The notes under the pieces were generated by a model. That model was not told where the DNA came from. It did no database searches and saw only the letters and a list, made by a program, of their open reading frames with translations. The translations under genes were made by a program, and so were the position numbers. Positions 3,843-44,627 of a stretch of 64,000 nt of DNA are shown piece after piece. This stretch comes from Dehalococcoidia bacterium. GTDB lineage: Bacteria > Chloroflexota > Dehalococcoidia > Lucifugimonadales > Australimonadaceae. The stretch spans positions 948,248 through 1,012,247 of the forward strand of contig OZ241751.1 in NCBI GenBank assembly GCA_965201135.1, read 5' to 3'. The first letter of the stretch is position 1. Every line of letters begins with the position of its first letter.

Positions 3843-4672
3843 GTCATTCCCGCGTAGGCAGGAATGACGATGAGGGGTAGGTTCCCGCTTTCGCAGGAAT
3901 GACGTGGCGCCGGGGAGAACGTGGAGACGGGGGCGCAGCCCCGTCTGCGGCGCTATCGCGCCGAATGGATTCCTGCCTACGCAGGAATGACGATGAGGGG
4001 TAGGTTCCCGCTTTCGCAGGAATGACGTGGAGACGGGGAGAACGTGGAGACGGGGCGCAGCCCCGTCTGCGGCGCTTTCGCGCCGAATGGATTCCTGCCT
4101 ATGCAGGAATGACGATGAGGGGTAGGTTCCCGCTTTCGCGGGAATGACGTGGCGCCGGGGAGAACGTGGAGACGGGGCGCAGCCCCGTCTGTGGCGCTAT
4201 CGCGCCGAATGGATTCCTGCCTATGCAGGAATGACGATGAGGGGTAGGTTCCCGCTTTCGCGGGAATGACGTGGCGCCGGGGAGAACGTGGAGACGGGGC
4301 GCAGCCCCGTCTGTGGCGCTTTCGCGCCGAATGGATTCCTGCCTACGCAGGAATGACGATGAGGGGTAGGTTCCCGCTTTCGCGGGAATGACGATGAGGG
4401 GTAGGTTCCCGCTTTCGCGGGAATGACGTGGCACCGGGGAGAACGTGGAGACGGGGCGCAGCCCCGTCTGCGGCGCTTTCGCGCCGAATGGATTCCTGCC
4501 TACGCAGGAATGACGATGAGGGGTAGGTTCCCGCTTTCGCAGGAATGACGTGGCGCCGGGGAGAACGTGGAGACGGGGCGCAGCCCCGTCTGCGGCGCTT
4601 TCGCGCCGAATGGATTCCTGCCTACGCAGGAATGACGATGAGGGGTAGGTTCCCGCTTTCGCAGGAATGACG
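3843..4672. repeat. Tandem array (~6.7 copies, 122-bp period) of a composite REP-like unit made of three hairpin modules
   Basis: The motif ggattcctgcc recurs at 3967, 4089, 4211, 4333, 4490 and 4612. Spacing is 122 bp, with one 157-bp unit carrying an extra 35-bp module. Each unit has three hairpins: attcctgc-ctac-gcaggaat, ttcccgc-tttc-gcgggaa and gacgggg-cgcag-ccccgtc. There are no unique spacers. Confidence 0.9.
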
Positions 4673-4867
4673 ATGAGAGAAGGAATGGCGATCATAGAGG
4701 GGGGCGCGACGATAACGGGGCGCGGAATGGAGACCAACAAGCGCGAGCGTCGGCGATACGCCCAAGACGGGGCGCTACGCGCCCCGTCTCCCCTAACCCC
4801 CCGGGGCCGCGTCATTCCCGCGGAAGCGGGAATCCGGCGGCGCGCGGGGTTGAACGCGCCTCCGCCG

Positions 4868-8353: not shown

Positions 8354-9610
8354 CTAGTTGACCGTCAGGGAGGCGACGCCGCTGAGGTCGAGCGCGATGG
8401 CGCGCGTCTCCGCGTCGGCGGCGCGGACGACCTCGACGATCTCCAAGATGTCCTCGGCTCTGCCGTAGCCGTAGTCGTCGGTGTAGCCCGCGATGCTGAC
8501 GGCTTCCTTGAATCCCGCGTCGGCCACGATCTGGTCGAAGGCGGACTGCCAGTACTGCCTCACGTCGTCGGGCACGCCGGGCGGGAGGAAGAACACGCGG
8601 GAGATTTCGGTGACGAGCAGGTTGATCTCCAGCGCCGCCGCCTGCGCCTCGTTGAACTCCAGCCCGGGCAGGTCGCGGAACGAGGGCAGTTCGCCCGTGT
8701 AGCCGAGCCGAGCCAGCCAATCCGCGCTGTAGGGCTTCTTCTCATAGAAGAGCGGAACCAGCCGCCCATCCTCGATCCATTCCGGGTAGAGGCGCCCCGC
8801 CGTTCCCGGGCTGCAGCGGTTCGTTCCGGTGACCTCGCCGCGGTCGAAGGCGGCCATGATGTCGGAGGTGCCGCCGTAGCCGTAGAGGAGTTGGAACGGG
8901 CCGCCGTTTTGCGCCAGGAACTCCAGCGCGGGCTCGTTGCCCGCAGCCGCCGAGCCCACTTTGATCGTGATGCCCTTGTCCAGGATGTCTTGCCAGGAGG
9001 TCGCCACGCTTCGGTCGACGCAGAAGCCGTCCTCGTTAATGGCGAACGTGGGGGAGCCGAGGATGTGGATCGCGTCAATGTCGAACTTCGGCACATCGCC
9101 GACCAGCAATTGCCTGGCGAACCATCGAGAGTGCGTCGGGCCGATGGTGAGGCCGTCGGGCTCGGAGTCCAGCACGGCGCGGAGGCCGCGGTACTGTCCG
9201 GCGCCCGGCAGGTTCTGCACGACGAACCGGGTGCTCTCTGGGAAGTACCTCTCCGCCGTGGCTGCGACGATTCTGCTGAAGACGTCGTAGCCGCCGCCCG
9301 GGCTCGCCCCGACCTTGATGCGGATCGTCTTGCCGCCGAAGTACTCGTCGGCGTCGAAGCCTGCGGGCGGAGGCACGGGCGTCGCGGTGGCTCTTGGCCT
9401 GGGGGTCGCGGTGGGGCGGGGCGCGGCGGCGCCGCCGGCGCCGGGCGTCGGCGTGGCCGCGGGCGCAACCGTGGGCGCGGCGGTCGCCGCAGGCGCTTGC
9501 GTCGCCGTGGGCGCTTGCGTCGGCGCGGGGTCGTCGCCTCCGCAGGCGGCGAAAAGCGCCAGCGTCAGGGCGGCTGCGGCGCCGAGGGCGATAATCCGGT
9601 GAAAGCGCAT
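8354..9610 (-). CDS. tctC: TctC/Bug-family periplasmic solute-binding lipoprotein
   Basis: In frame with ORF 8354..9796. ATG 9610 is preceded by AGGAGG. The lipoprotein signal is MRFHRIIALGAAAALTLALFAACGG, followed by a Pro/Thr/Ala linker. GASPGGGYDVFSRIVA...VVQNLPGAGQ resembles the TctC core. Confidence 0.8.
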   Translation of the reverse strand: MRFHRIIALGAAAALTLALFAACGGDDPAPTQAPTATQAPAATAAPTVAPAATPTPGAGGAAAPRPTATPRPRATATPVPPPAGFDADEYFGGKTIRIKVGASPGGGYDVFSRIVAATAERYFPESTRFVVQNLPGAGQYRGLRAVLDSEPDGLTIGPTHSRWFARQLLVGDVPKFDIDAIHILGSPTFAINEDGFCVDRSVATSWQDILDKGITIKVGSAAAGNEPALEFLAQNGGPFQLLYGYGGTSDIMAAFDRGEVTGTNRCSPGTAGRLYPEWIEDGRLVPLFYEKKPYSADWLARLGYTGELPSFRDLPGLEFNEAQAAALEINLLVTEISRVFFLPPGVPDDVRQYWQSAFDQIVADAGFKEAVSIAGYTDDYGYGRAEDILEIVEVVRAADAETRAIALDLSGVASLTVN

Positions 9611-9762
9611 CGGTGTTCCTCCTGTGCGTTGCGCGGCGGCGGCTCCGGTTCGCCGGAATCGCCGCGTGACGGGCTGATGCATGCGTTGGGGCGCACGATA
9701 CCCTTGCGCGGGCGTCAAGTCAATCGCCTGCGTCCGTTGCGCCTGCGCGGCTCTTTCTCGTA

Positions 9763-9896
9763 GAAGGCGGCTCCATTTGGCCCCATTTGGCCCCATTTAC
9801 TCCTAGCGCCGGGTCCGCCGCAGGGCCGGTTTGGGGCTGTTTTAGGGCGGAATTGGGGGCGTTTGGGGCGGAAATGGGGCCAAATAGAGCCGCTTC
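9763..9896. repeat. Palindromic element A built from 10-11 nt phased A/T-tract words (word aaatgggg/ccccattt)
   Basis: The ends gaaggcggctccatttggcccc (9763-9784) and ggggccaaatagagccgcttc (9876-9896) are inverted repeats. The left arm is ccatttgg ccccatttgg ccccattta. The right arm is gtttggggc tgttttagggc ggaattggggg cgtttggggc ggaaatggggc caaat. Confidence 0.8.
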
Positions 9897-24314: not shown

Positions 24315-26192
24315 ATGTTCCGCGGTCTCGTATCACGATTTTTGAAGAAGCCTGACGCTTCGGCGGCGAGCGCGTCCTCGCCGCCGTCGTCCGCCGTGCC
24401 CGCCGAACGCGATGGGGGGCGCAGGCTACGATCCCGGACGCCTGAGGGCGGCGGGGCGAGCGCGCCCCAGGTCCGTCGCGCCGCGCCGCTTGCGGCTCCG
24501 TCCGCTCCCGCCAGCGACGGCGAAATACAGGGCGGCCGTTCGCGTCGGCGTCGCGGAGGCAGAGGGCGCGGCGCGTCATCCCCGAGCGCAGCGCCGCAAG
24601 ACGCCCCGACCCGCTCCGACCGCCGAGGCGGGCCCGCGCTCAACGGCGTCGCGTCATCTCCTAACGCAACGAACGCGGCGCCGCAAGACGCCGCGACACG
24701 CTCGCGCTCTCCGAGGGAAGGAGAGAAGCCGGATTCTTGGCGGCGGGAGCGGGACGAGGAGCCTCGCGGAGGGCGGAGCCGCGATGCTCCCGCCGACGGC
24801 GTCGCGGGAAACGCAACCCGCTCTGGGCGGGAGCGGGACGGCGAGCCTCGCGGGGGGCGGAGCCGCGATGCTTCCGCCAACGGCGTCGCGGGAAACGCAA
24901 CGCGCCCTGGGCGGGAGCGGGACGGGGAGCCTCGCGGAGGGCGGAGCCGGGGTGCTTTCGCTAATGACGGGGCGCGAGGCGGCGCGGCGTCCCGGGGCAG
25001 GGACCGCCGTCCGCGAGGAGCGCCGGTCGAGGCGCGGGGGCCGGCGCCGAGGAATCGCTCGTTCGGGTCGGCGCGGGTCTCCGAGCCGATCGCGCTTGCG
25101 CTGGAGGAGATGGGCTACGCGGAGCCGACGCCGATTCAGGAACTGGTGATCGAGCCGCTGATGAGCGGCGCGGACATCGTGGGGCAGGCGCAGACGGGCA
25201 CGGGCAAGACCGCCGGGTTCGGCATTCCCATCGCGGAGCGGACGGACGCGCGCGACCGGTTCGTTCAGGCCATCGTTCTCACGCCGACGCGGGAACTGGC
25301 GCGGCAGGTGGCCGGCGAACTCACGGCGATCTGCAGGCGCACGGGTGCGCGGGTGGCCACGGTCTACGGCGGGGCGGGCATCGGGCCGCAGGCGCGGGCG
25401 CTGGAGGGCGGCGCGCAGATCGTCGTCGGCACGCCCGGGCGCGTCATCGATATGCTCGACCGGGGCTCGCTGCGGCTGGACAGGGCGGGCATCGTCGTGC
25501 TGGACGAGGCGGATCAGATGCTGGACATCGGCTTTCTGCCGGACGTTCGGCGCATTCTCCGCTCCACGCCGCGGTCGCGCCAGACGGCGCTCTTCACCGC
25601 GACCGTGCCGACGATGATTCGCCGCCTTATCTACTCCTACCTTCGGGAGCCGCAATGGTTCCGCGTCGGCGAGGAGTCGGAGCCCGTCGAGCAGGTTACG
25701 CAGCGCTATTGCGAGGTGGCGAGCCGCGACAAACTCTCCGCCTTGCTGAGTCTGCTGGACGCGGACGAGCAGACGCTCGTCTTCCGTCGCACGCAAGGCG
25801 ACGTGGACTGGCTGGTGAGCACGCTGGGGCGGCGCGGCGCGGCGGCGGCGGCGATTCACGGCGGGCTTCCGCAAGGCGCGCGCAACGCGGTGATGCAGCG
25901 GTTCCGCGACGGCGAGATCAAACTGCTCGTGTCCACCAACCTCACCTCGCGCGGGATAGACGTGCCGACGGTGGCCAACGTGATCAACTACGACATCCCG
26001 GAGAGCGTCGAGGAGTACGTGCATCGCATCGGGCGGACGGCGCGAATGGGGCGCGAGGGCTCCGCGCTGACGTTCGTGAGCGAGTGGGACTTGGAGTTCT
26101 TCGACGCGATCAAGGCGCACGTGGGCGACGACCTGCAGCCGCTGGAGTTGGGTCTGTACAAGGCGGCGCGGCGCTCGGAATCCCGGCGATAG
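24315..26192 (+). CDS. DEAD-box ATP-dependent RNA helicase with ~240-aa Arg/Gly-rich N-terminal extension
   Basis: In frame with ORF 23208..26192 (residue 370 = MFRGLVSRF). Helicase motifs: PTPIQ, AQTGTGKT, PTRELA, VLDEADQM, LVSTNLTSRGIDV and HRIGRTAR. An 84-nt tandem repeat has units starting at 24745, 24829 and 24913. Confidence 0.85.
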   Translation: MFRGLVSRFLKKPDASAASASSPPSSAVPAERDGGRRLRSRTPEGGGASAPQVRRAAPLAAPSAPASDGEIQGGRSRRRRGGRGRGASSPSAAPQDAPTRSDRRGGPALNGVASSPNATNAAPQDAATRSRSPREGEKPDSWRRERDEEPRGGRSRDAPADGVAGNATRSGRERDGEPRGGRSRDASANGVAGNATRPGRERDGEPRGGRSRGAFANDGARGGAASRGRDRRPRGAPVEARGPAPRNRSFGSARVSEPIALALEEMGYAEPTPIQELVIEPLMSGADIVGQAQTGTGKTAGFGIPIAERTDARDRFVQAIVLTPTRELARQVAGELTAICRRTGARVATVYGGAGIGPQARALEGGAQIVVGTPGRVIDMLDRGSLRLDRAGIVVLDEADQMLDIGFLPDVRRILRSTPRSRQTALFTATVPTMIRRLIYSYLREPQWFRVGEESEPVEQVTQRYCEVASRDKLSALLSLLDADEQTLVFRRTQGDVDWLVSTLGRRGAAAAAIHGGLPQGARNAVMQRFRDGEIKLLVSTNLTSRGIDVPTVANVINYDIPESVEEYVHRIGRTARMGREGSALTFVSEWDLEFFDAIKAHVGDDLQPLELGLYKAARRSESRR

Positions 26193-38850: not shown

Positions 38851-40129
38851 CTACCCATCCTTGCGCGGCGGCTTCGCCAGCGACACCGCGACCAGCGCGA
38901 CCAGCAGCGCCGCGAGAAAGATGAGAAACGCGAGCGTGTAACTCCCGCGCAGGTCGTAGATCCAACCCGTCAGAACCGCGCCCGTCGCCGCGAACGGCCC
39001 CGAAAGCAACTGCGATAGGCCGCGTATCGCCCCCAAATGCCGCCGCCCGAAGTAGTTGGCGAACAGCACGACCTGCGCCACCGTCCAGCCGCCCGTCCCC
39101 AGCCCGAACACCACCCCGAACGCCGACGCCATCGGAATGTTGTCCGCGAATATCAGCATCGCCATCGCCGCGCACGACAGAACCGTGGCCAGCGCCGCGC
39201 CCCAGCGAACGTGAAACCGGTCCATCAGCGCGCCCCATCCGTAGGCCGACACCGCCGCCGTCCCCATAATGATGAACACGAACGCCCCGGAGAACTCGCG
39301 CGGCGCGCCCCGCGCCTCCACGCTCGGAACGGCGTGCACGTTCACCGCCGTCTGCGCGAAGAACACGATCATCGTCGCCGCCGTCAGCAGCCAAAACGCC
39401 GGCGTCCAGCGCGCCTCCGCAAGCGTGAACGACGCCTCGCCGCCGTCCGCCCGACGCTCCGCTCCGCCGGCGCTTGCGTCCGCCCCGTCCGGCAGCATCC
39501 CGTAGTCCTCCGGCCTCCGCCGGATGAACAGCCATCCGGGAATGACGATCAGCGCGAACGTCATGACGGCCAGCGCGGCGTAGGCGTGCCGCCACGAGTA
39601 CGCGATGATCAGCGGCGTGGCGATCGCCAGCGGAACCACCGCCTGCCCCGCCCGCAGCCCGATGCTGATGAACGAGACGGCGCGCCCCCGCTTGCTTACG
39701 AACCAGTTGCCCACCGCCACCATCGTCCCCAAGTTCACGCCGGTCAGCGCCGCTGTTCGCCCCGCGCCGAACAGCGCCCAGAACTGCCAGACCTCCTGCA
39801 TCAGCGCCAGCCCCGCGAGCGCGCCCGTGATCACCAGCCCCCCGACCGCAATCGCCGTCCGCGCCCCGTATCTGTCGAGTTTGCTTCCGATGACCGCCGC
39901 GCCCCGCGGCCCCGCACAAACTCCCGATGGCGAACGCCGCCGAAATCTCCGCCCGCGTCCACCCCAACTCCTCGCTGATCGGCGTCACGAACACGGACAG
40001 CACGGCGCCGTACATCGGCACCTGCGCGAACGCGATGACCGTCGACGCCGAGACGATGCCCCAGCCGAAAAAGACGCGCTCGAACGGCCAGAACGCAGGC
40101 GGAGCGGGGCGCGGCGACGGTCGCGTCAT
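38851..40129 (-). pseudogene. MFS transporter interrupted by a frameshift near 39895-39905 (or a sequencing error)
   Basis: The N-terminal ~76 aa (MTRPSPRPAPPAFWPFERVFFGWGIVSASTVIAFAQVPMYGAVLSVFVTPISEELGWTRAEISAAFAIGSLCGAAG) lie in the 38819..40129 frame. The sequence continues sensibly as ...AAVIGSKLDRYGARTAIAVGGLVITGALAG... only in the 38851..39834 frame. The switch falls in the G/C run gcggggccgcggggcgcggcgg. Confidence 0.7.
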
Positions 40130-40158
40130 GCGGCGGCTTCGGGCGGACGCGGCGTCGC

Positions 40159-40232
40159 GCCCGCAATTCCTCCTATGCTAGGAGTGAATGGAGGGCGACT
40201 CGGCTCCGTATGAGCGTTACGCAAAGGTCTCT
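40159..40232. mobile_element. Truncated, diverged MITE copy (right half with TIR variant gttacgcaaaggtct)
   Basis: gcccgcaattcctcctatgctaggagtgaatggagggcgactcggctccgtatgagcgttacgcaaaggtctct aligns with the interior and right end of the copy at 54787-54883. Confidence 0.55.
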
Positions 40233-40280
40233 AGCGCCGCCGGAGCGCGTCCGCCGCGTTCGCCATCGCGCCCCCGCCTC

Positions 40281-41495
40281 CTACCGCCCGCGCCCGCGAG
40301 GGCCGGCGGTTGCGAGGTATCCCTCGTAGTTGCGGCGCGTCTCCGAGATATGGTCGCCGCCGAACTTCTCCGTGAACGCCCCGGCGAGCGTGATCAGAAC
40401 CATCGCCTCCGCGATCACGCCGCAAGTGGGAACGAACGTGACGTCGCTGCGCTCGTAGTGCGCCTGATCGAGTTCGCCGGTCGCAAGATCGACCGAGGGC
40501 AGCGGGGTCATCATCGTGGCGATGGGCTTGACGACGGCGCGGACGACGAGAGGCTCGCCGGTGGTCATGCCCCCCTCGAGCCCGCCGGCGTTGTTGGTGC
40601 GGCGCGGCCATGCGCGCTTCCACGAGCCGCCGCCGCCGCGCTCCCACTCCTCGATGGGCTTGATCACGTCGTGAACCCTGGAGCCGCGCAAGTCGGCGAG
40701 CGCGAACCCCTTGCCGATCTCCACGCCTTTGACGGCGTTGACGCTGCCGACGGCGGCCATCAGCCTCGTGCTCAGTTTCGTATCCCACTGAATATGGGAG
40801 CCGAGGCCGATGGGCAGCCCGGTCGCCACGACTTCGACGACGCCTCCGAGGCTGTCGCCGGCCTCTTTCGCCGCGTCTATCTCGCGCACCATCAGCGCGC
40901 CCGCGTCCGGGTCGGCGCAGCGAACGGGGGACTCCTCGGCGGCGGCCCAGTCCACGGGCTCCGGCGGATGCGCCTGAACGCCCCCGATGTTCGTGACGTG
41001 GCTATGCGCCTCGACGCCGAATTCGGCGAGGAAGGCGCGGCAGGCGGCGCCGGCGGCGACGCGGGCGGCGGACTCCCTCGCCGACGAGCGCTCCAGTATG
41101 TTGCGGGCGTCGTCCTGCAGATACTTGCTGACGCCGGGCGTGTCGGCGTGGCCGGGGCGCAGACGGCGGATCGGCGTGACCTCGCCCTCGACGGGCTCTT
41201 TCGCCATCGTATGCGTCCACGGCTTGCCGTCCGGCCCGTTTCCCGTGAAGTGGTCGCGGTTTTCGATGAGCATTGCGATGGGCGCGCCAGTGGTGAAGCC
41301 GTGCCGCACCCCGGACTGCAGGACGGCGTAGTCCGTCTCGATCTGCATGCGCCCGCCGCGCCCATAGCCCATCTGCCGCCGGGCGAGGTCGGCGCGGACG
41401 AACGCCTCGGAGAGGGGAACCCCCGCCGGCAGCCCATCGAGAAGCGCGACGAGTCCGGGGCCGTGGGACTCGCCCGCCGTGAGAAATCGAACCAA
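40281..41495 (-). CDS. aroC: Chorismate synthase
   Basis: 404 aa. Starts (TTG)VRFLTAGESHGPGLVALLDGLPAGV with GGAGG 8 nt upstream. RSSARESAARVAAGA and the other AroC blocks are present. Confidence 0.95.
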   Translation of the reverse strand: MVRFLTAGESHGPGLVALLDGLPAGVPLSEAFVRADLARRQMGYGRGGRMQIETDYAVLQSGVRHGFTTGAPIAMLIENRDHFTGNGPDGKPWTHTMAKEPVEGEVTPIRRLRPGHADTPGVSKYLQDDARNILERSSARESAARVAAGAACRAFLAEFGVEAHSHVTNIGGVQAHPPEPVDWAAAEESPVRCADPDAGALMVREIDAAKEAGDSLGGVVEVVATGLPIGLGSHIQWDTKLSTRLMAAVGSVNAVKGVEIGKGFALADLRGSRVHDVIKPIEEWERGGGGSWKRAWPRRTNNAGGLEGGMTTGEPLVVRAVVKPIATMMTPLPSVDLATGELDQAHYERSDVTFVPTCGVIAEAMVLITLAGAFTEKFGGDHISETRRNYEGYLATAGPRGRGR

Positions 41496-41571
41496 GTCCG
41501 GAACCTCCGCCGGGAATTGGCGTCTATTCTACACGGCGGGGCGCGCCGCCGGGCTACGGGCGCTGGCTTCG

Positions 41572-42033
41572 CTACTCTCGATTCGCTATCCGTTCAGCGA
41601 CCAATTTCGCAACTTCACGCGCCCAACTCCGCCATCGCCTGTCCGTCCGCCTGACTTCGTCGTACTCGTCCGGCGATGGCATCGGCGGCAATTCCGGCGC
41701 ATGCTGAGCCGTGCAGGCTTGTATGCGGTTAGTTGGGTGGTCAGGCGGGTCGCCGCTCAGGAGAACCGGCGCAATTGCGACTGCGTCCCTGTTGAACCAA
41801 GCGAACGTAGATTCCATAATCGCCCACTTGCTCGCCCCGAAATCGTCTGTCCAGACGGGAACGAAACACCGCATAGCCTTCAGGTTCTTCTCTATCTCCT
41901 CTTCCCATTCCGTAAATGGAGCAATGTCTTCCGCAGCGAGGAAGACGACGAGACCCTCAGCCTCTAGGGATTCCTTTAGGTAGGACGCGGCGTCAAGGCC
42001 GGCATCGGCGTAGCTCAGGAATATATCCGCCAT
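41572..42033 (-). CDS. Short stand-alone TIR-domain protein (153 aa)
   Basis: MADIFLSYADAGLDAASYLKESLEAEGLVVFLAAEDI...MRCFVPVWTDDFGASKWAIMESTFAW carries the D-x-F-x-S-Y strand-A motif and the S-x-W-x(3)-E glutamate motif of bacterial TIR domains. The ATG lies 3 nt after the upstream stop. Confidence 0.8.
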   Translation of the reverse strand: MADIFLSYADAGLDAASYLKESLEAEGLVVFLAAEDIAPFTEWEEEIEKNLKAMRCFVPVWTDDFGASKWAIMESTFAWFNRDAVAIAPVLLSGDPPDHPTNRIQACTAQHAPELPPMPSPDEYDEVRRTDRRWRSWAREVAKLVAERIANRE

Positions 42034-42036
42034 CCG

Positions 42037-42573
42037 CTACGCCAAGGCGGGTTCCGGAGCGCCGCTTCCGTTGCGCTGCATCGTCACGGCGTCCCCGTCC
42101 GACCACACCCAATAGCCTTTGGTGGGGCGGAGCGTTCCATGCTGGCCTTTTTGGATCTCCTCCCAGTCGCCGTTGGCGGCTACGTTGGCTACGGGGCGCT
42201 TCAGCGTGTTGGCCACGCGCCAATCCAGCGCCTTGAAGTAAGCGTCGGCGTCTTGCTCCCTCTCTCCGATAACGCCAACCAAATTCCAGCCGTTGACGAT
42301 TCTGACGTGAGCGGATTCGCTCGCCTGAACGCAAAGGCTTTCCTCTCTCGGCGTGTTGACCCAGTACCCGCATCCGCCTGCGATTTCGCCGAGCGTTCCC
42401 GTCCACACGCCGTCCTCGTCTTTGACGGCCGTCGACCAGCCGCCGTCCTGGTAGCGCAACGCAACGGATACGGAGGAACCGCTGAAGACGTCCGCTACTC
42501 CCGGGCGCGCCGGGGTATACGGAAAAGATATGAGGTTCCACCCGGTCGAAAGGCTTATCGCCATTTCTTTCAT
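42037..42573 (-). CDS. Uncharacterised 178-aa protein with two GWNL...GYWV repeats, co-transcribed with the TIR gene
   Basis: In frame with ORF 42037..42651. ATG 42573 has GGAGG 7 nt upstream. Repeat 1 runs GWNLISFP...GCGYWVNT and repeat 2 runs GWNLVGVIG...TKGYWVWSD. I see no signal peptide or TM helix. Confidence 0.65.
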   Translation of the reverse strand: MKEMAISLSTGWNLISFPYTPARPGVADVFSGSSVSVALRYQDGGWSTAVKDEDGVWTGTLGEIAGGCGYWVNTPREESLCVQASESAHVRIVNGWNLVGVIGEREQDADAYFKALDWRVANTLKRPVANVAANGDWEEIQKGQHGTLRPTKGYWVWSDGDAVTMQRNGSGAPEPALA

Positions 42574-42622
42574 TACGAAACCTCCGGGTCGAAGCGCGCC
42601 GGCCCCTCTTCCCCAAGTTTGG

Positions 42623-42651
42623 AATTTAGCCCAATCCGTCCGCCATGTCAA
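42623..42651 (-). promoter_or_regulatory. Near-consensus sigma70-type promoter TTGACA-17-TAAATT driving the TIR cassette
   Basis: On the minus strand, ttgaca is at 42651-42646 and taaatt at 42628-42623, with a 17-nt spacer. The promoter lies between the stop of the dehydrogenase gene (42658) and ATG 42573. Confidence 0.5.
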
Positions 42652-42657
42652 CGCTCC

Positions 42658-43716
42658 CTAAATCAGGCTTCGCCCCTCAAAGCGCTCTCGCCAGCGCGGG
42701 AGAACGTCCTTGTTGAAGACGTGCTCGGGAACTTGCCCCCGCAGCGCGCGCAGGACGTCCTCTGTGCCCCACTCGATGCCGGGGCCGATCCCCGCGCCGT
42801 AGTTGTGCGCCGCGACGTGCGCCGACAGCAAAACGCGCTCGTCCATCTTCCGCAGCGGGCTGTCCATCGGCAGCGGCTCCACCTCGAAAACGTCCAGCCC
42901 CGCGCCCGCTATCGCCTCATTCCGCAGAGCGTCGATCAGGGCGGGCTCGTCGATCACCGGCCCTCGCGCCGTGTTCAGAATGATCGCCGTCGGCTTCATC
43001 ATGGCGAACTCGCGCGCGCCGATCATGCGGCGCGTCTCGGCGGTCAGCGTGACGTGCAGCGTGACGACGTCGGACTCGCGCAGCAGCGTATCGAGGTCGA
43101 CGCGCTCCACGTTGGCGTGAATGAAGCGGTCTACCGGCTGATAGGGGTCGTAGCCGATCATTCGGACGCGCCACGGCGCGAGCATCTGCGCCAGCCGCCC
43201 GCCAATGCGCCCCAGCCCGACGATGCCGATCGTCAGCCCCGGATAGCCGTCCTCGCGCCGTCCGATATGCGTCGCGGTCAACTCCTCCGTCCGCCACGCC
43301 GTCCCGTGCTTGAGCGCCGCGTCGCGCTGCCGCGCCTTCTTCAGGAGCGTCAGCATCTGCTGCATCGTCGTCTCCACGACGCCGCCCCAGTTCGCCTCCG
43401 TCGGCGCGTGCGTTACGACGATGCCCAACTCCGTCGCGGCGTCGACGTCGATCTCGTCGACGCCCACGGTGTACTTCGCCGCGATCCGCAACTGCTCGGA
43501 GGCGAGCATTACGCCCCGGTCTATCCGCCCGCCCTTGATCGACGTTCCGACGAGCGCGTCGGCGCCTGCGGCCAGCGCCGCCAGTTCCTCCGTCGTGTTC
43601 CCCGTCGGGTCGGCCCAAGACGCCTTCCCGAACGAGACCTCGCATCCGGCCTCCGCGAACCGCTTGTGACTCTCCTCGTCGCCCGGGGCGAAAACGACCA
43701 CCTTCGGCGCAGCCAT
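42658..43716 (-). CDS. D-isomer-specific 2-hydroxyacid dehydrogenase (PGDH/GyaR-like)
   Basis: In frame with ORF 42658..43887. Start MAAPKVVVFAP with AGGAGGA upstream. GIVGLGRIGGRLAQML is the NAD-binding motif; the TLHVTLTAETRRMI and NTARGPVIDEPALIDAL blocks are present. Confidence 0.85.
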   Translation of the reverse strand: MAAPKVVVFAPGDEESHKRFAEAGCEVSFGKASWADPTGNTTEELAALAAGADALVGTSIKGGRIDRGVMLASEQLRIAAKYTVGVDEIDVDAATELGIVVTHAPTEANWGGVVETTMQQMLTLLKKARQRDAALKHGTAWRTEELTATHIGRREDGYPGLTIGIVGLGRIGGRLAQMLAPWRVRMIGYDPYQPVDRFIHANVERVDLDTLLRESDVVTLHVTLTAETRRMIGAREFAMMKPTAIILNTARGPVIDEPALIDALRNEAIAGAGLDVFEVEPLPMDSPLRKMDERVLLSAHVAAHNYGAGIGPGIEWGTEDVLRALRGQVPEHVFNKDVLPRWRERFEGRSLI

Positions 43717-43781
43717 GCATCTCCTCCTTGTTGGGACGTTCCCGCAATCTGATGCGCCCGCAATGATGCGGCGCCGGCGGC

Positions 43782-44627
43782 CTAGCCCGGCGTGGGCGTC
43801 AGCGCCAGCAGAACCTCGACGCGCACCTCGTCGCCCACGCTCACCACGCTCCGCGCCGTCGGAACGGGCTCGCCAATGTCGTCCCACGTGAACGACGAGC
43901 GCCCCACTACGTACACCACGTCCCCGTCGTCGCGCGCCTCGACCGCGAACGTCAGCGGAACGTCCATCCCGTTGATGCGGAGCGTTCCCGTCACGTCCGC
44001 CGTCGCCGTCTCGCCGTCCGCGAAGCCGTCCGGCAAGGGCGTGAGGTCGCCGAACGCGACCTCCGCCGCCGGCTGATTTGGGAACATCCGCGAGCGGACG
44101 TATCTGTCGCGGAACGGCTCGTCGCTCGTCATCCCGTGCAGGCCGACCTCAATCAGCGAGTCGCCGCCGTCCAGCCGAACCTCGCCGGAGAGTTCGTCCG
44201 TCCGCATCACGGCCTCGTAGTTCGGCACGGTGACGCGAGCCAACTCCTCATCCACCGAGAACGTCGCCCTGGAGCCTGCCCCGACGACGAACCGGACGCC
44301 GTCCACCTCGCCGGTGGAGCGCGAGAACGGCGCAGGGGTCGCGGGCGAGTCGGTCGGCGGCGGCGGCGTGGTTGGGGTCGGGCGAGCCGCCCCTTGCGCC
44401 GCCGCGGTGGGAGTGTCGTCGGCAGGGAGCGGCGTCGCCGTCGGGCCGCGCGTCGGGGCGGGCTCGCCTGCCGGCGCGGTTGCGGTCGCGGTCGGCGCCG
44501 GCTGCTCGACTCGCGGCGTGTCCGTGGGCGCCGGCGGCGGAGTAGGCGTCGCGTCTCCGCAAGCGGCGAAGACGGCCAGCGCGGCGAGCGCGAACAAAAC
44601 GGCGGGCGCGTTGCGGACGGCGTTCAT
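43782..44627 (-). CDS. YceI-family lipoprotein
   Basis: In frame with ORF 43782..44957. The signal is MNAVRNAPAVLFALAALAVFAACG, followed by a Pro/Thr-rich linker. The YceI-like core is SRATFSVDEEL...SDEPFRDRYVRSRMF...VTGTLRINGMDVPLTF. Confidence 0.7.
   Translation of the reverse strand: MNAVRNAPAVLFALAALAVFAACGDATPTPPPAPTDTPRVEQPAPTATATAPAGEPAPTRGPTATPLPADDTPTAAAQGAARPTPTTPPPPTDSPATPAPFSRSTGEVDGVRFVVGAGSRATFSVDEELARVTVPNYEAVMRTDELSGEVRLDGGDSLIEVGLHGMTSDEPFRDRYVRSRMFPNQPAAEVAFGDLTPLPDGFADGETATADVTGTLRINGMDVPLTFAVEARDDGDVVYVVGRSSFTWDDIGEPVPTARSVVSVGDEVRVEVLLALTPTPG

Follow-up and report, generated by a model that had tools for sequence, protein, structure and literature searches.

A compact, 1.1-kb cassette on the minus strand of a 64,000-nucleotide (nt) stretch of DNA from a Dehalococcoidia bacterium (NCBI GenBank assembly GCA_965201135.1, contig OZ241751.1, positions 948,248 to 1,012,247 of the forward strand; hereafter "the window") encodes, at positions 41572-42651, a 178-amino acid (aa) protein made of two GWNL..GYWV repeats and, directly behind it, a 153-aa minimal TIR protein. 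The reading that we favor, and to which we give about half of our confidence, is that these two genes would be a bicistronic conflict module composed of a toxin and its partner, of the toxin-antitoxin (TA) or abortive-infection type, in which the effector can be exchanged between a HepT-like RNase and a TIR protein. What leads us to this reading is that the same partner family pairs with HepT-like RNases elsewhere, so that the partner would be the constant part of the module and the effector its exchangeable part. The analysis was computational throughout and employed sequence comparison and structure prediction.

Results

The partner family is also found in front of HepT-like RNase genes

Outside TIR contexts, the profile matches to the 178-aa partner include other signal-less, stand-alone module proteins of ~200 aa, and the gene surroundings of six of these were read. 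A gene encoding a HepT-like RNase (PF01934, 114-115 aa, E down to 1e-16) follows downstream on the same strand in five of the six, at a distance of 0-15 nt that is mostly 3 nt. These module-HepT pairs contain the partner proteins P0048 (locus L019, 7992-8942), P0038 (L089, 5001-5963), P0035 (L090-L092, 4001-4942), P0077 (L093, 2873-3835), and P0118 (L175, 293-1249), and the stop-(2-3 nt)-ATG junction of the window cassette is also seen in the pairs of L090, L093, and L175. At least three unrelated neighborhoods are represented (coaX/nnr, aconitase/PolyA_pol, and ABC transporter/methylmalonyl-CoA mutase), the pairs are lower in GC content than the loci that hold them, and no MntA nucleotidyltransferase gene is present near any of the five. 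Moreover, the 312-aa protein P0076, known from one 67-kb ENA contig, is an in-frame fusion of the module with a HepT-like domain (E 1.2e-11) at residues 210-307. Within the window itself, a tblastn search for HepT gave no match.

Because the module precedes both HepT and TIR, it occupies the antitoxin slot before two unrelated effector types, and its adjacency to HepT strengthens the view that the 178-aa protein is the partner of an effector. The module-HepT pairs appear to represent an undescribed HepT partner family in Dehalococcoidia. In addition, a neighbor-joining tree of 176 modules places all the stand-alone cytoplasmic forms, whether TIR-linked, HepT-linked, or solo, in a single cluster apart from the modules of surface proteins, with the TIR-linked clade as sister to the HepT-linked P0038; a single origin of the cytoplasmic forms is retained here solely as the topology of the best tree. 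A PIN/PhdYeFM TA pair is located directly after the module-HepT pair in L093 (3844-4505) and is absent from the orthologous loci L090-L092.

Organization of the TIR cassette

On the minus strand, the cassette runs from a promoter-like site through a Shine-Dalgarno sequence into the 178-aa open reading frame (ORF) and, after 3 nt, into the 153-aa ORF. The predicted sigma-70-type promoter-like site, TTGACA-17-TAAATT (42623-42651), lies directly after the stop codon of the upstream dehydrogenase gene and agrees with the consensus at 10 of 12 positions, 0.1 such sites being expected from shuffles in the scan. A TTGAC(A/G) box with a TAnnnT box 17-20 nt downstream recurs at the corresponding intergenic position in each of the five orthologous loci inspected (L001, L006, L007, L086, and L088). 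The Shine-Dalgarno sequence GGAGG (42581-42585) precedes the start codon of the partner gene (42037-42573, stop included) by 7 nt, and the spacer CGG (42034-42036) separates the TAG stop codon of this gene from the ATG of the effector gene (41572-42033). Termination-reinitiation coupling of the two genes across the CGG spacer is likely. The GC content is 0.57-0.63 over positions 41550-42750 compared with about 0.69-0.72 in the flanks, and the GC content at third codon positions (GC3) is 0.76 for the partner gene and 0.66 for the TIR gene, compared with 0.90 for the adjoining dehydrogenase gene.

Much of this anatomy had been proposed in a preliminary description of the window made from its sequence alone. 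Both ORFs, the GGAGG at 7 nt, and the 3-nt gap are present as claimed there, the proposed promoter was recovered by the scan and has conserved boxes, and the suggested dip in GC content is confirmed by computed values and by the low GC3 relative to the dehydrogenase gene. The further claim that the two genes are an autonomous, self-promoted unit is supported, and the data support translational coupling within this two-gene unit as well.

The genes on either side, both on the minus strand, provide context only. The upstream gene (42658-43716, Pfam E 4.7e-52) encodes a D-2-hydroxyacid dehydrogenase, its start being set at MAAPKVVV as in the orthologues, and the chorismate synthase gene aroC (40281-41495, Pfam E 6e-105) is located 76 nt downstream of the TIR gene. 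We considered the dehydrogenase as a component of the system and rejected it on the grounds of the conserved promoter between the genes and of differences in composition and evolutionary rate. No convincing minus-strand terminator was found between the TIR gene and aroC (fold z-score of 0.18 over 41490-41580), so that transcriptional read-through into aroC is possible. Searches against Rfam gave no RNA family in positions 40000-44500, and a search for direct or inverted repeats flanking the cassette, as might be left by an insertion, returned short, chance-level matches only.

Conservation, selection, and age of the pair

A search of 5.8 billion proteins identified six full-length orthologues of the partner with 59-97% identity. 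In every readable contig (L001-L008 and L086-L088) the TIR gene lies 2-16 nt after the partner gene, and the pair is retained together in all of the ~8 versions known, these being the window, the L001-5 group, L006, L007/8, L086/87, and L088. The junction has the stop-(2-3 nt)-ATG form in L001 and L007 and measures 15-16 nt in L006 and L088, and the start codon and ribosome-binding site of the partner gene are conserved across the orthologues. An orthologous dehydrogenase gene is present directly upstream of the pair wherever upstream sequence is available; the downstream neighbor is aroC in the window and a gene for a thiamine pyrophosphate-dependent (TPP) enzyme in the orthologous loci.

Pairwise Nei-Gojobori estimates of the ratio of nonsynonymous to synonymous substitution rates (dN/dS) are 0.13-0.30 for the partner (dN 0.15-0.39; amino acid identity to the window of 55-66%, and up to 75% for L006 versus L088) and 0.14-0.24 for the TIR protein (dN 0.13-0.31; identity to the window of 59-69%, and up to 77% for L006 versus L088). 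For the dehydrogenase, dN/dS is 0.09-0.15, dN is 0.04-0.08, and the identity to the window is 86-92%. Both genes of the cassette are therefore under purifying selection, yet their rate of evolution is 3-5 times that of the housekeeping gene next to them. Between L001 and L006, the modules are 61% identical and the TIR proteins 75%. In this same comparison, dS is 1.0-1.4 for the pair and 0.24 for the dehydrogenase gene, an excess that may stem from an exchange of alleles at a fixed site or from nothing more than strong codon bias in the dehydrogenase gene.

In all five lineages compared, GC3 is low in the pair (0.66-0.79) relative to the dehydrogenase gene (0.90-0.96). Given the same dehydrogenase neighbor in relatives (86-92% identical) and this shared low GC3, the pair is an old resident of its site. 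We reject a recent horizontal insertion into this genome on account of the synteny and low GC3 shared with diverged relatives, and the preliminary description, in which the cassette had been regarded as horizontally acquired and inserted between aroC and the dehydrogenase gene, has to be corrected on this point. Its proposal of a partner role for the repeat protein, on the other hand, is supported, as a role dedicated to the TIR protein, by the retention of the two genes together in every orthologous locus and by the purifying selection on both.

No close orthologue pair is present in the GTDB species representatives, among them OY282355.1 from an uncultured Dehalococcoidia bacterium, whose aroC is taken to share the 90% cluster of the window aroC; these findings suggest that the distribution of the pair is patchy and accessory. 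In L006, a gene of the HNH restriction-endonuclease type (9099-9860; PADLOC PDLC04132, E 3e-102) directly follows the TIR gene. The partner gene of L086 (7406-7945) is broken into ORFs of 73 and 89 aa; the contig comes from long reads at 7x and contains further split genes, and the break is probably an indel error and not the mark of a pseudogene.

The partner protein and its domain family

The 178-aa partner has no match in Pfam (E<=1), NCBIfam, PADLOC, or PHROG, and a sequence search of the PDB gave nothing meaningful. An AlphaFold2 (AF2) model was obtained with a predicted local distance difference test (pLDDT) score of 90.8 (two of five models) and is all beta. Foldseek comparison of this model with the PDB and BFVD returned no match at E<=1e-3, the best TM-scores being 0.16-0.28, and hence the fold cannot be named although the model is confident. 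Profile-profile comparison proves that the protein contains two ~80-aa repeats, as had been thought from the letters alone: hhalign aligns the first half with the second over 68 columns with a probability of 96.7% and E 3.4e-10, and both halves show the same beta-beta-alpha-beta pattern in the AF2 model. BLASTP of the two halves gives E 0.031 and aligns the GWNL motif alone. On the basis of the hhalign alignment and the AF2 pattern, repeat 1 (GWNLIS ... GYWVN) comprises residues ~5-84 (42322-42561, minus strand) and repeat 2 (GWNLVG ... GYWVW) comprises residues ~88-167 (42073-42312, minus strand). Neither a signal peptide nor a transmembrane segment is present in the partner, and the maximum Kyte-Doolittle value in its first 35 aa is 0.91, compared with 2.4-2.9 in secreted relatives, a difference that agrees with the earlier statement that the protein lacks such segments.

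An exhaustive profile search shows that the partner belongs to a large family, with 14,221 cluster representatives at E<=1e-3 and 3,910 at E<=1e-10; the window partner itself scores E 4e-49 against a hidden Markov model of 176 modules that was built with the window protein included. Across 75 loci from genomes and 80 from marine metagenomes, the ~175-aa module almost always forms the extreme C-terminus of large proteins. These proteins have an N-terminal signal peptide and 800-2,400 aa (up to 3,400 aa among the profile matches), and in the large surface proteins an Ig-like domain precedes the module. Pfam domains that co-occur with it are DUF11, Big_13, BNR, and P_proprotein. Several module-bearing paralogues are often present in tandem in one genome, and in many Dehalococcoidia genomes (L011, L012, L015, L016, and others) tandem surface paralogues of 900-1,500 aa carry a signal peptide of the form MAVALSLLIVLP..AQ and the module at the C-terminus, and thus make up a large family of surface proteins that is as yet uncharacterized. 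Small secreted versions of the module are also known (L032, L045, and L067), four of them in tandem in L032 (7965-10800). The genome relatives of the partner domain all come from Dehalococcoidia, SAR202, or Chloroflexota metagenome-assembled genomes with a GC content of 0.64-0.70, and an S-layer envelope is known from cultured members of the Dehalococcoidia genus Tepidiforma (PMC10284905).

The GWNL..GYWV family is therefore one of surface-protein modules, whose role is probably anchoring or assembly. As judged from its sequence, the window partner is a signal-less, stand-alone copy of this module and falls into a minority subgroup of predicted stand-alone cytoplasmic forms. The preliminary description had regarded its own interpretation as untenable if the 178-aa protein proved to belong to a characterized surface or structural family and not to be syntenic with TIR genes elsewhere. 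The first half of this statement applies, in that the domain is that of a surface-protein family, and the second does not, in that a TIR gene follows in every orthologous locus. No relative was obtained when viral contigs were scanned with the partner profile, or from viral structure and family libraries (BFVD and PHROGs). A scan of JGI metagenomes with the stand-alone partners returned almost solely large surface proteins, none of which has an adjoining HepT or TIR gene. In L021 (7914-8060), from another Dehalococcoidia metagenome-assembled genome, a weak TIR-like tblastn match (37% over 49 aa, E 8e-6) is located ~7 kb from a surface-protein module, to which it is probably unrelated.

The TIR protein

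Residues 4-106 of the 153-aa protein match the Pfam TIR_2 family (PF13676) at E 1.1e-15, with a score of 58.6 bits where the cut-off is 28. Besides the TIR core (residues ~1-106), the protein has a Pro-rich segment that is conserved (96-124) and a helix at the C-terminus. In alignments with a profile of the clade, the segment S68-K-W70-A-I-M-E74 corresponds to SSWCLDE, the SxWCxxE catalytic motif of plant AtTIR (3jrn), and also to the motif of Cat1; the predicted catalytic residue Glu74 is encoded by the GAA codon at 41812-41814 (minus strand). E74, W70, S68, and F5-L6-S7 do not vary among the six known TIR cluster sequences, and E35, D36, I37, P39, F40, E42, W43, and E44 of the BB-loop region are likewise invariant in the TIR clade. 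When a low-confidence AF2 model was submitted to Foldseek, the top 50 PDB matches were all TIR domains (TM-score about 0.5, probability about 1.0), including RPPT, RUN1, SARM1, and AbTir, the last three of which are NADases. An NAD+-cleaving activity may thus be predicted for the window protein. The strand-A and S-x-W-x(3)-E motifs that had suggested a TIR protein in the preliminary description are borne out by the TIR_2 match, by the alignment of E74 with the 3jrn motif, and by its invariance in the clade, and the proposed architecture is equally accurate, since the protein consists of a TIR core and a short tail and contains no SAVED, STING, or APAZ region.

The TIR protein has no signal peptide, transmembrane segment, or hydrophobic N-terminus. 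Its clade comprises six clusters only (56-100% identity) in the search of 5.8 billion proteins, and the TIR profile found no relatives in the JGI metagenome scan. Public records give a 1,345-nt contig as the sole source of the exact TIR sequence and a 2.94-Mb contig for the partner and aroC proteins; the public chromosome annotation may therefore lack a call for the TIR gene or call it differently.

Other repeats in the window

Far from the cassette, positions 3846-4677 of the window hold a tandem array in which a 122-nt period is repeated at least 4.5 times with 96-98% matches. Short hairpins (ATTCCTGCCTACGCAGGAAT and GTTCCCGCTTTCGCGGGAAT) occur in the units, and the array may be a structured repeat, either similar to repetitive extragenic palindromes (REP) and miniature inverted-repeat transposable elements (MITE) or of another kind. 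A second tandem repeat, with a period of 84 nt, 2.6 copies, and 91% matches, is present at 24742-24961.

Discussion

Proposed mechanism and alternative explanations

In the toxin-partner reading, the partner and the TIR protein would be made from one transcript by coupled termination and reinitiation, with the partner produced in stoichiometric excess. The partner would be a cytoplasmic two-repeat beta module that the lineage took over from the C-terminus of its secreted surface proteins, and would bind the TIR protein directly, control its oligomerization, and keep it inactive. Both TIR NADases and HEPN RNases need self-association for activity, and it is this step that the partner would control. 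A trigger, most plausibly a phage protein or stress, would then titrate, displace, or destroy the partner, and the freed TIR protein would self-associate, cleave NAD+, and arrest or kill the cell. We infer the physical interaction, the neutralization, the NADase toxicity, and the nature of the trigger from the arguments given here. Neutralization is favored over positive control by the partner because of the antitoxin-first gene order and the HepT precedent; the in silico data would nevertheless fit either kind of control.

The operon anatomy, with its own promoter and ribosome-binding site, the partner gene in first position, and a 3-nt junction, is typical of type II TA modules, and conflict genes have landed directly downstream in two relatives (the HNH gene in L006 and the PIN/PhdYeFM pair in L093). 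Several observations weigh against the toxin-partner reading. The partner seems, from its sequence, to have neither the DNA-binding part nor an obviously labile region of classical antitoxins, and at 178 aa it is larger than the 153-aa TIR protein. One of the six stand-alone modules examined outside TIR contexts (P0072 in L094) has no adjoining effector gene, and the P0076 fusion is a singleton cluster from one contig that could be an assembly error. Bootstrap values are weak for the monophyly of the stand-alone forms (28/100) and for the grouping of the TIR clade with P0038 (26/100), the value for the TIR-linked clade itself being 100. The TIR pair, unlike mobile TA cassettes, is confined to a single chromosomal position in one lineage, and its neighborhood is of metabolic and housekeeping genes, with no defense island. 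Finally, the AF2 model of the TIR protein has low confidence (pLDDT 56), and TIR proteins can be signal generators instead of toxins.

Some of the same evidence can be read in the opposite sense, with the partner as an activator. The module might serve as a decoy that binds a phage protein, such as a structural or receptor-binding one, or unexported precursors of surface proteins and then nucleates assembly of TIR or HepT in a sensor-activated abortive infection, an explanation that we consider unlikely but by no means negligible. It would account for the clear derivation of the module from the lineage's own surface proteins and for the faster evolution of the module than of the TIR protein in some comparisons, such as that of L001 with L006, and phage-protein-activated TIR effectors are documented (SpbK/YonE and BcTir/Tpr). 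The arrangement would be similar to that of DSR2, which is said to sense the phage tail tube, and of SpbK, which is said to sense the phage portal. Among viral contigs and viral structure and family libraries, however, the module has no relative; its order before the effector gene and its tight coupling to it are those of antitoxin-first TA operons, and the HepT proteins of the sister pairs are classical TA toxins. We are more doubtful still of guard or integrated-decoy immunity, in which the module would mimic the anchoring or assembly domain of the cell's own surface proteins, and a phage binder or piled-up precursors would release or assemble the suicide effector. The extracellular ancestry of the module also invites the suggestion that it is a component of the envelope or of secretion, TIR or HepT being exported as effectors against competitors or a eukaryotic host and the module acting perhaps as an immunity protein. 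The domain is extracytoplasmic in almost all of the 14,221 family members, where it ends proteins that have signal peptides, small secreted versions of it exist, and many relatives come from sponge-associated Chloroflexota; moreover, bacterial TIR proteins that interfere with host signaling are known. Such an export role is improbable to us in view of the lack of a signal peptide or transmembrane segment in either window protein, when the secreted relatives have them, and of the conserved start codon. No secretion-system genes and no separate immunity gene are found nearby, and HepT is an intracellular TA toxin family.

Two further explanations have little to recommend them. The 178-aa gene could be a stranded C-terminal remnant of a surface-protein gene beside an orphan TIR gene, with no functional link between the two. 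Truncated C-terminal fragments do occur as separate ORFs (P0007 and P0008 in L009 and L010, with no TIR gene nearby), and the partner gene is split in L086, but the latter contig has only 7x long-read coverage and other split genes. A remnant would hardly be expected to retain a dN/dS of 0.13-0.30 over ~40% amino acid divergence, together with a conserved ATG, ribosome-binding site, and promoter and a constant junction with the TIR gene in all loci, and the independent recurrence of HepT pairs makes this explanation most improbable. We give, if anything, slightly less credence to Thoeris-like signaling, in which the TIR protein would make a cyclic ADP-ribose (cADPR)-type signal, an effector from another part of the genome would respond to it, and the module would be an accessory. 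The sub-threshold similarity of the TIR protein to ThsB (14.5 bits) and ThcB4 (27.4 bits against 220) speaks in its favor, yet no SIR2, SLOG, or Macro gene of the ThsA type is present in the window neighborhood or in any orthologous locus, and the sister pairs carry an RNase toxin and no signal generator.

Implications

If the toxin-partner reading is correct, the GWNL..GYWV modules would constitute a new family of partners, either antitoxins or sensors, for two unrelated effector classes, the TIR NADases and the HepT RNases, from a poorly studied and mostly uncultured part of the bacteria (Dehalococcoidia/SAR202 Chloroflexota). HepT toxins would then be controllable without MntA, and there would be a first functional handle on a domain family of more than 14,000 clusters that lacks a Pfam model and a solved fold and is the prevailing C-terminal domain among surface proteins of SAR202 and Dehalococcoidia. 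For a domain of extracellular origin, recruitment into a conflict module of the cytoplasm would be an unusual evolutionary route. Should the guard or decoy explanation be the correct one, the cassette would exemplify bacterial integrated-decoy immunity based on a previously unrecognized and structurally novel domain family.

Relationship to known systems

Thoeris, CBASS, and short prokaryotic Argonaute systems (SPARTA) were considered and rejected, their defining components being absent. The TIR domain with its catalytic glutamate is shared with Thoeris, but there is no ThsA gene at the cassette, and no ThsA-type gene (SIR2, SLOG, or Macro) is found in the window flanks, L001-L008, or L086. 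The scores of the TIR protein against PADLOC ThsB1 (14.5 bits, E 0.0035) and against NCBIfam ThcB4 of Thoeris type III (27.4 bits, cut-off 220) are far under the cut-offs. With regard to CBASS and Pycsar, there is no cyclase gene nearby and no SAVED or STING fusion, the sole match being a weak one (21.6 bits) to the TIR part of a SAVED-TIR model. For SPARTA/TIR-APAZ, the TIR protein contains no APAZ region and there is no prokaryotic Argonaute (pAgo) gene nearby. PADLOC, which the preliminary description had put forward as a check, gives no match for the partner and a sub-threshold one for the TIR protein, and together with the absence of ThsA, cyclase, SAVED/STING, and pAgo nearby this upholds the view that the cassette does not correspond to a named system.

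In a different sense, the module recalls the WxL domain (PF13731) of Firmicutes, a ~170-aa C-terminal domain with two W-x-L motifs that ends many paralogous surface proteins. This likeness is by analogy only, as there is no Pfam match at E<=1 and no detectable sequence relationship.

Closer parallels are provided by TIR effectors that are activated by direct binding of a phage protein, as described for SpbK and YonE (PMC12847820) and for the two-gene BcTir/Tpr operon (bioRxiv 10.1101/2023.05.26.542521). Like the window cassette, SpbK and BcTir/BcTpr combine an effector of the TIR NADase type with a non-enzymatic, protein-binding part in a stand-alone arrangement of one or two genes. The window partner is, however, unrelated to their binding parts, having neither tetratricopeptide repeats (TPR) nor the SpbK N-domain, and the TIR clade of six clusters is isolated.

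HepT is the toxin of the HEPN/MNT (HepT/MntA) type VII TA system (PMC7641770), and the Dehalococcoidia sister pairs carry a bona fide HepT-like gene (PF01934) in the antitoxin-first order. The difference from HepT/MntA is that the module partner is not a nucleotidyltransferase, so that neutralization by AMPylation is not possible, and that the HepT slot is filled by a TIR gene in the window.

A further close likeness is to type II TA modules. These are bicistronic, with their own promoter, the partner gene first, and a tightly coupled effector gene second, and they are fast-evolving and patchy in distribution, as is the window pair. Partner swapping among TA modules is established, as in the Panacea/PanA antitoxins of the NetFlax network (PMC10440598), and a single partner family with unrelated toxin families is likewise seen here with the HepT RNase and TIR. 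The gene layout agrees with the generic description of a type II TA system, that is, a conserved, adjacent, and apparently co-transcribed pair with partner swapping in relatives. The window partner differs from type II antitoxins in being an all-beta, two-repeat protein derived from a surface domain, with no match to a Pfam model or solved structure and no helix-turn-helix or other DNA-binding part. TIR effectors with dedicated sensors are already known from SpbK and BcTir/Tpr, and hence the cassette does not define a new category; the new features are the family to which the partner domain belongs, the extracellular source of that domain, and the fact that it pairs with HepT as well as with TIR.

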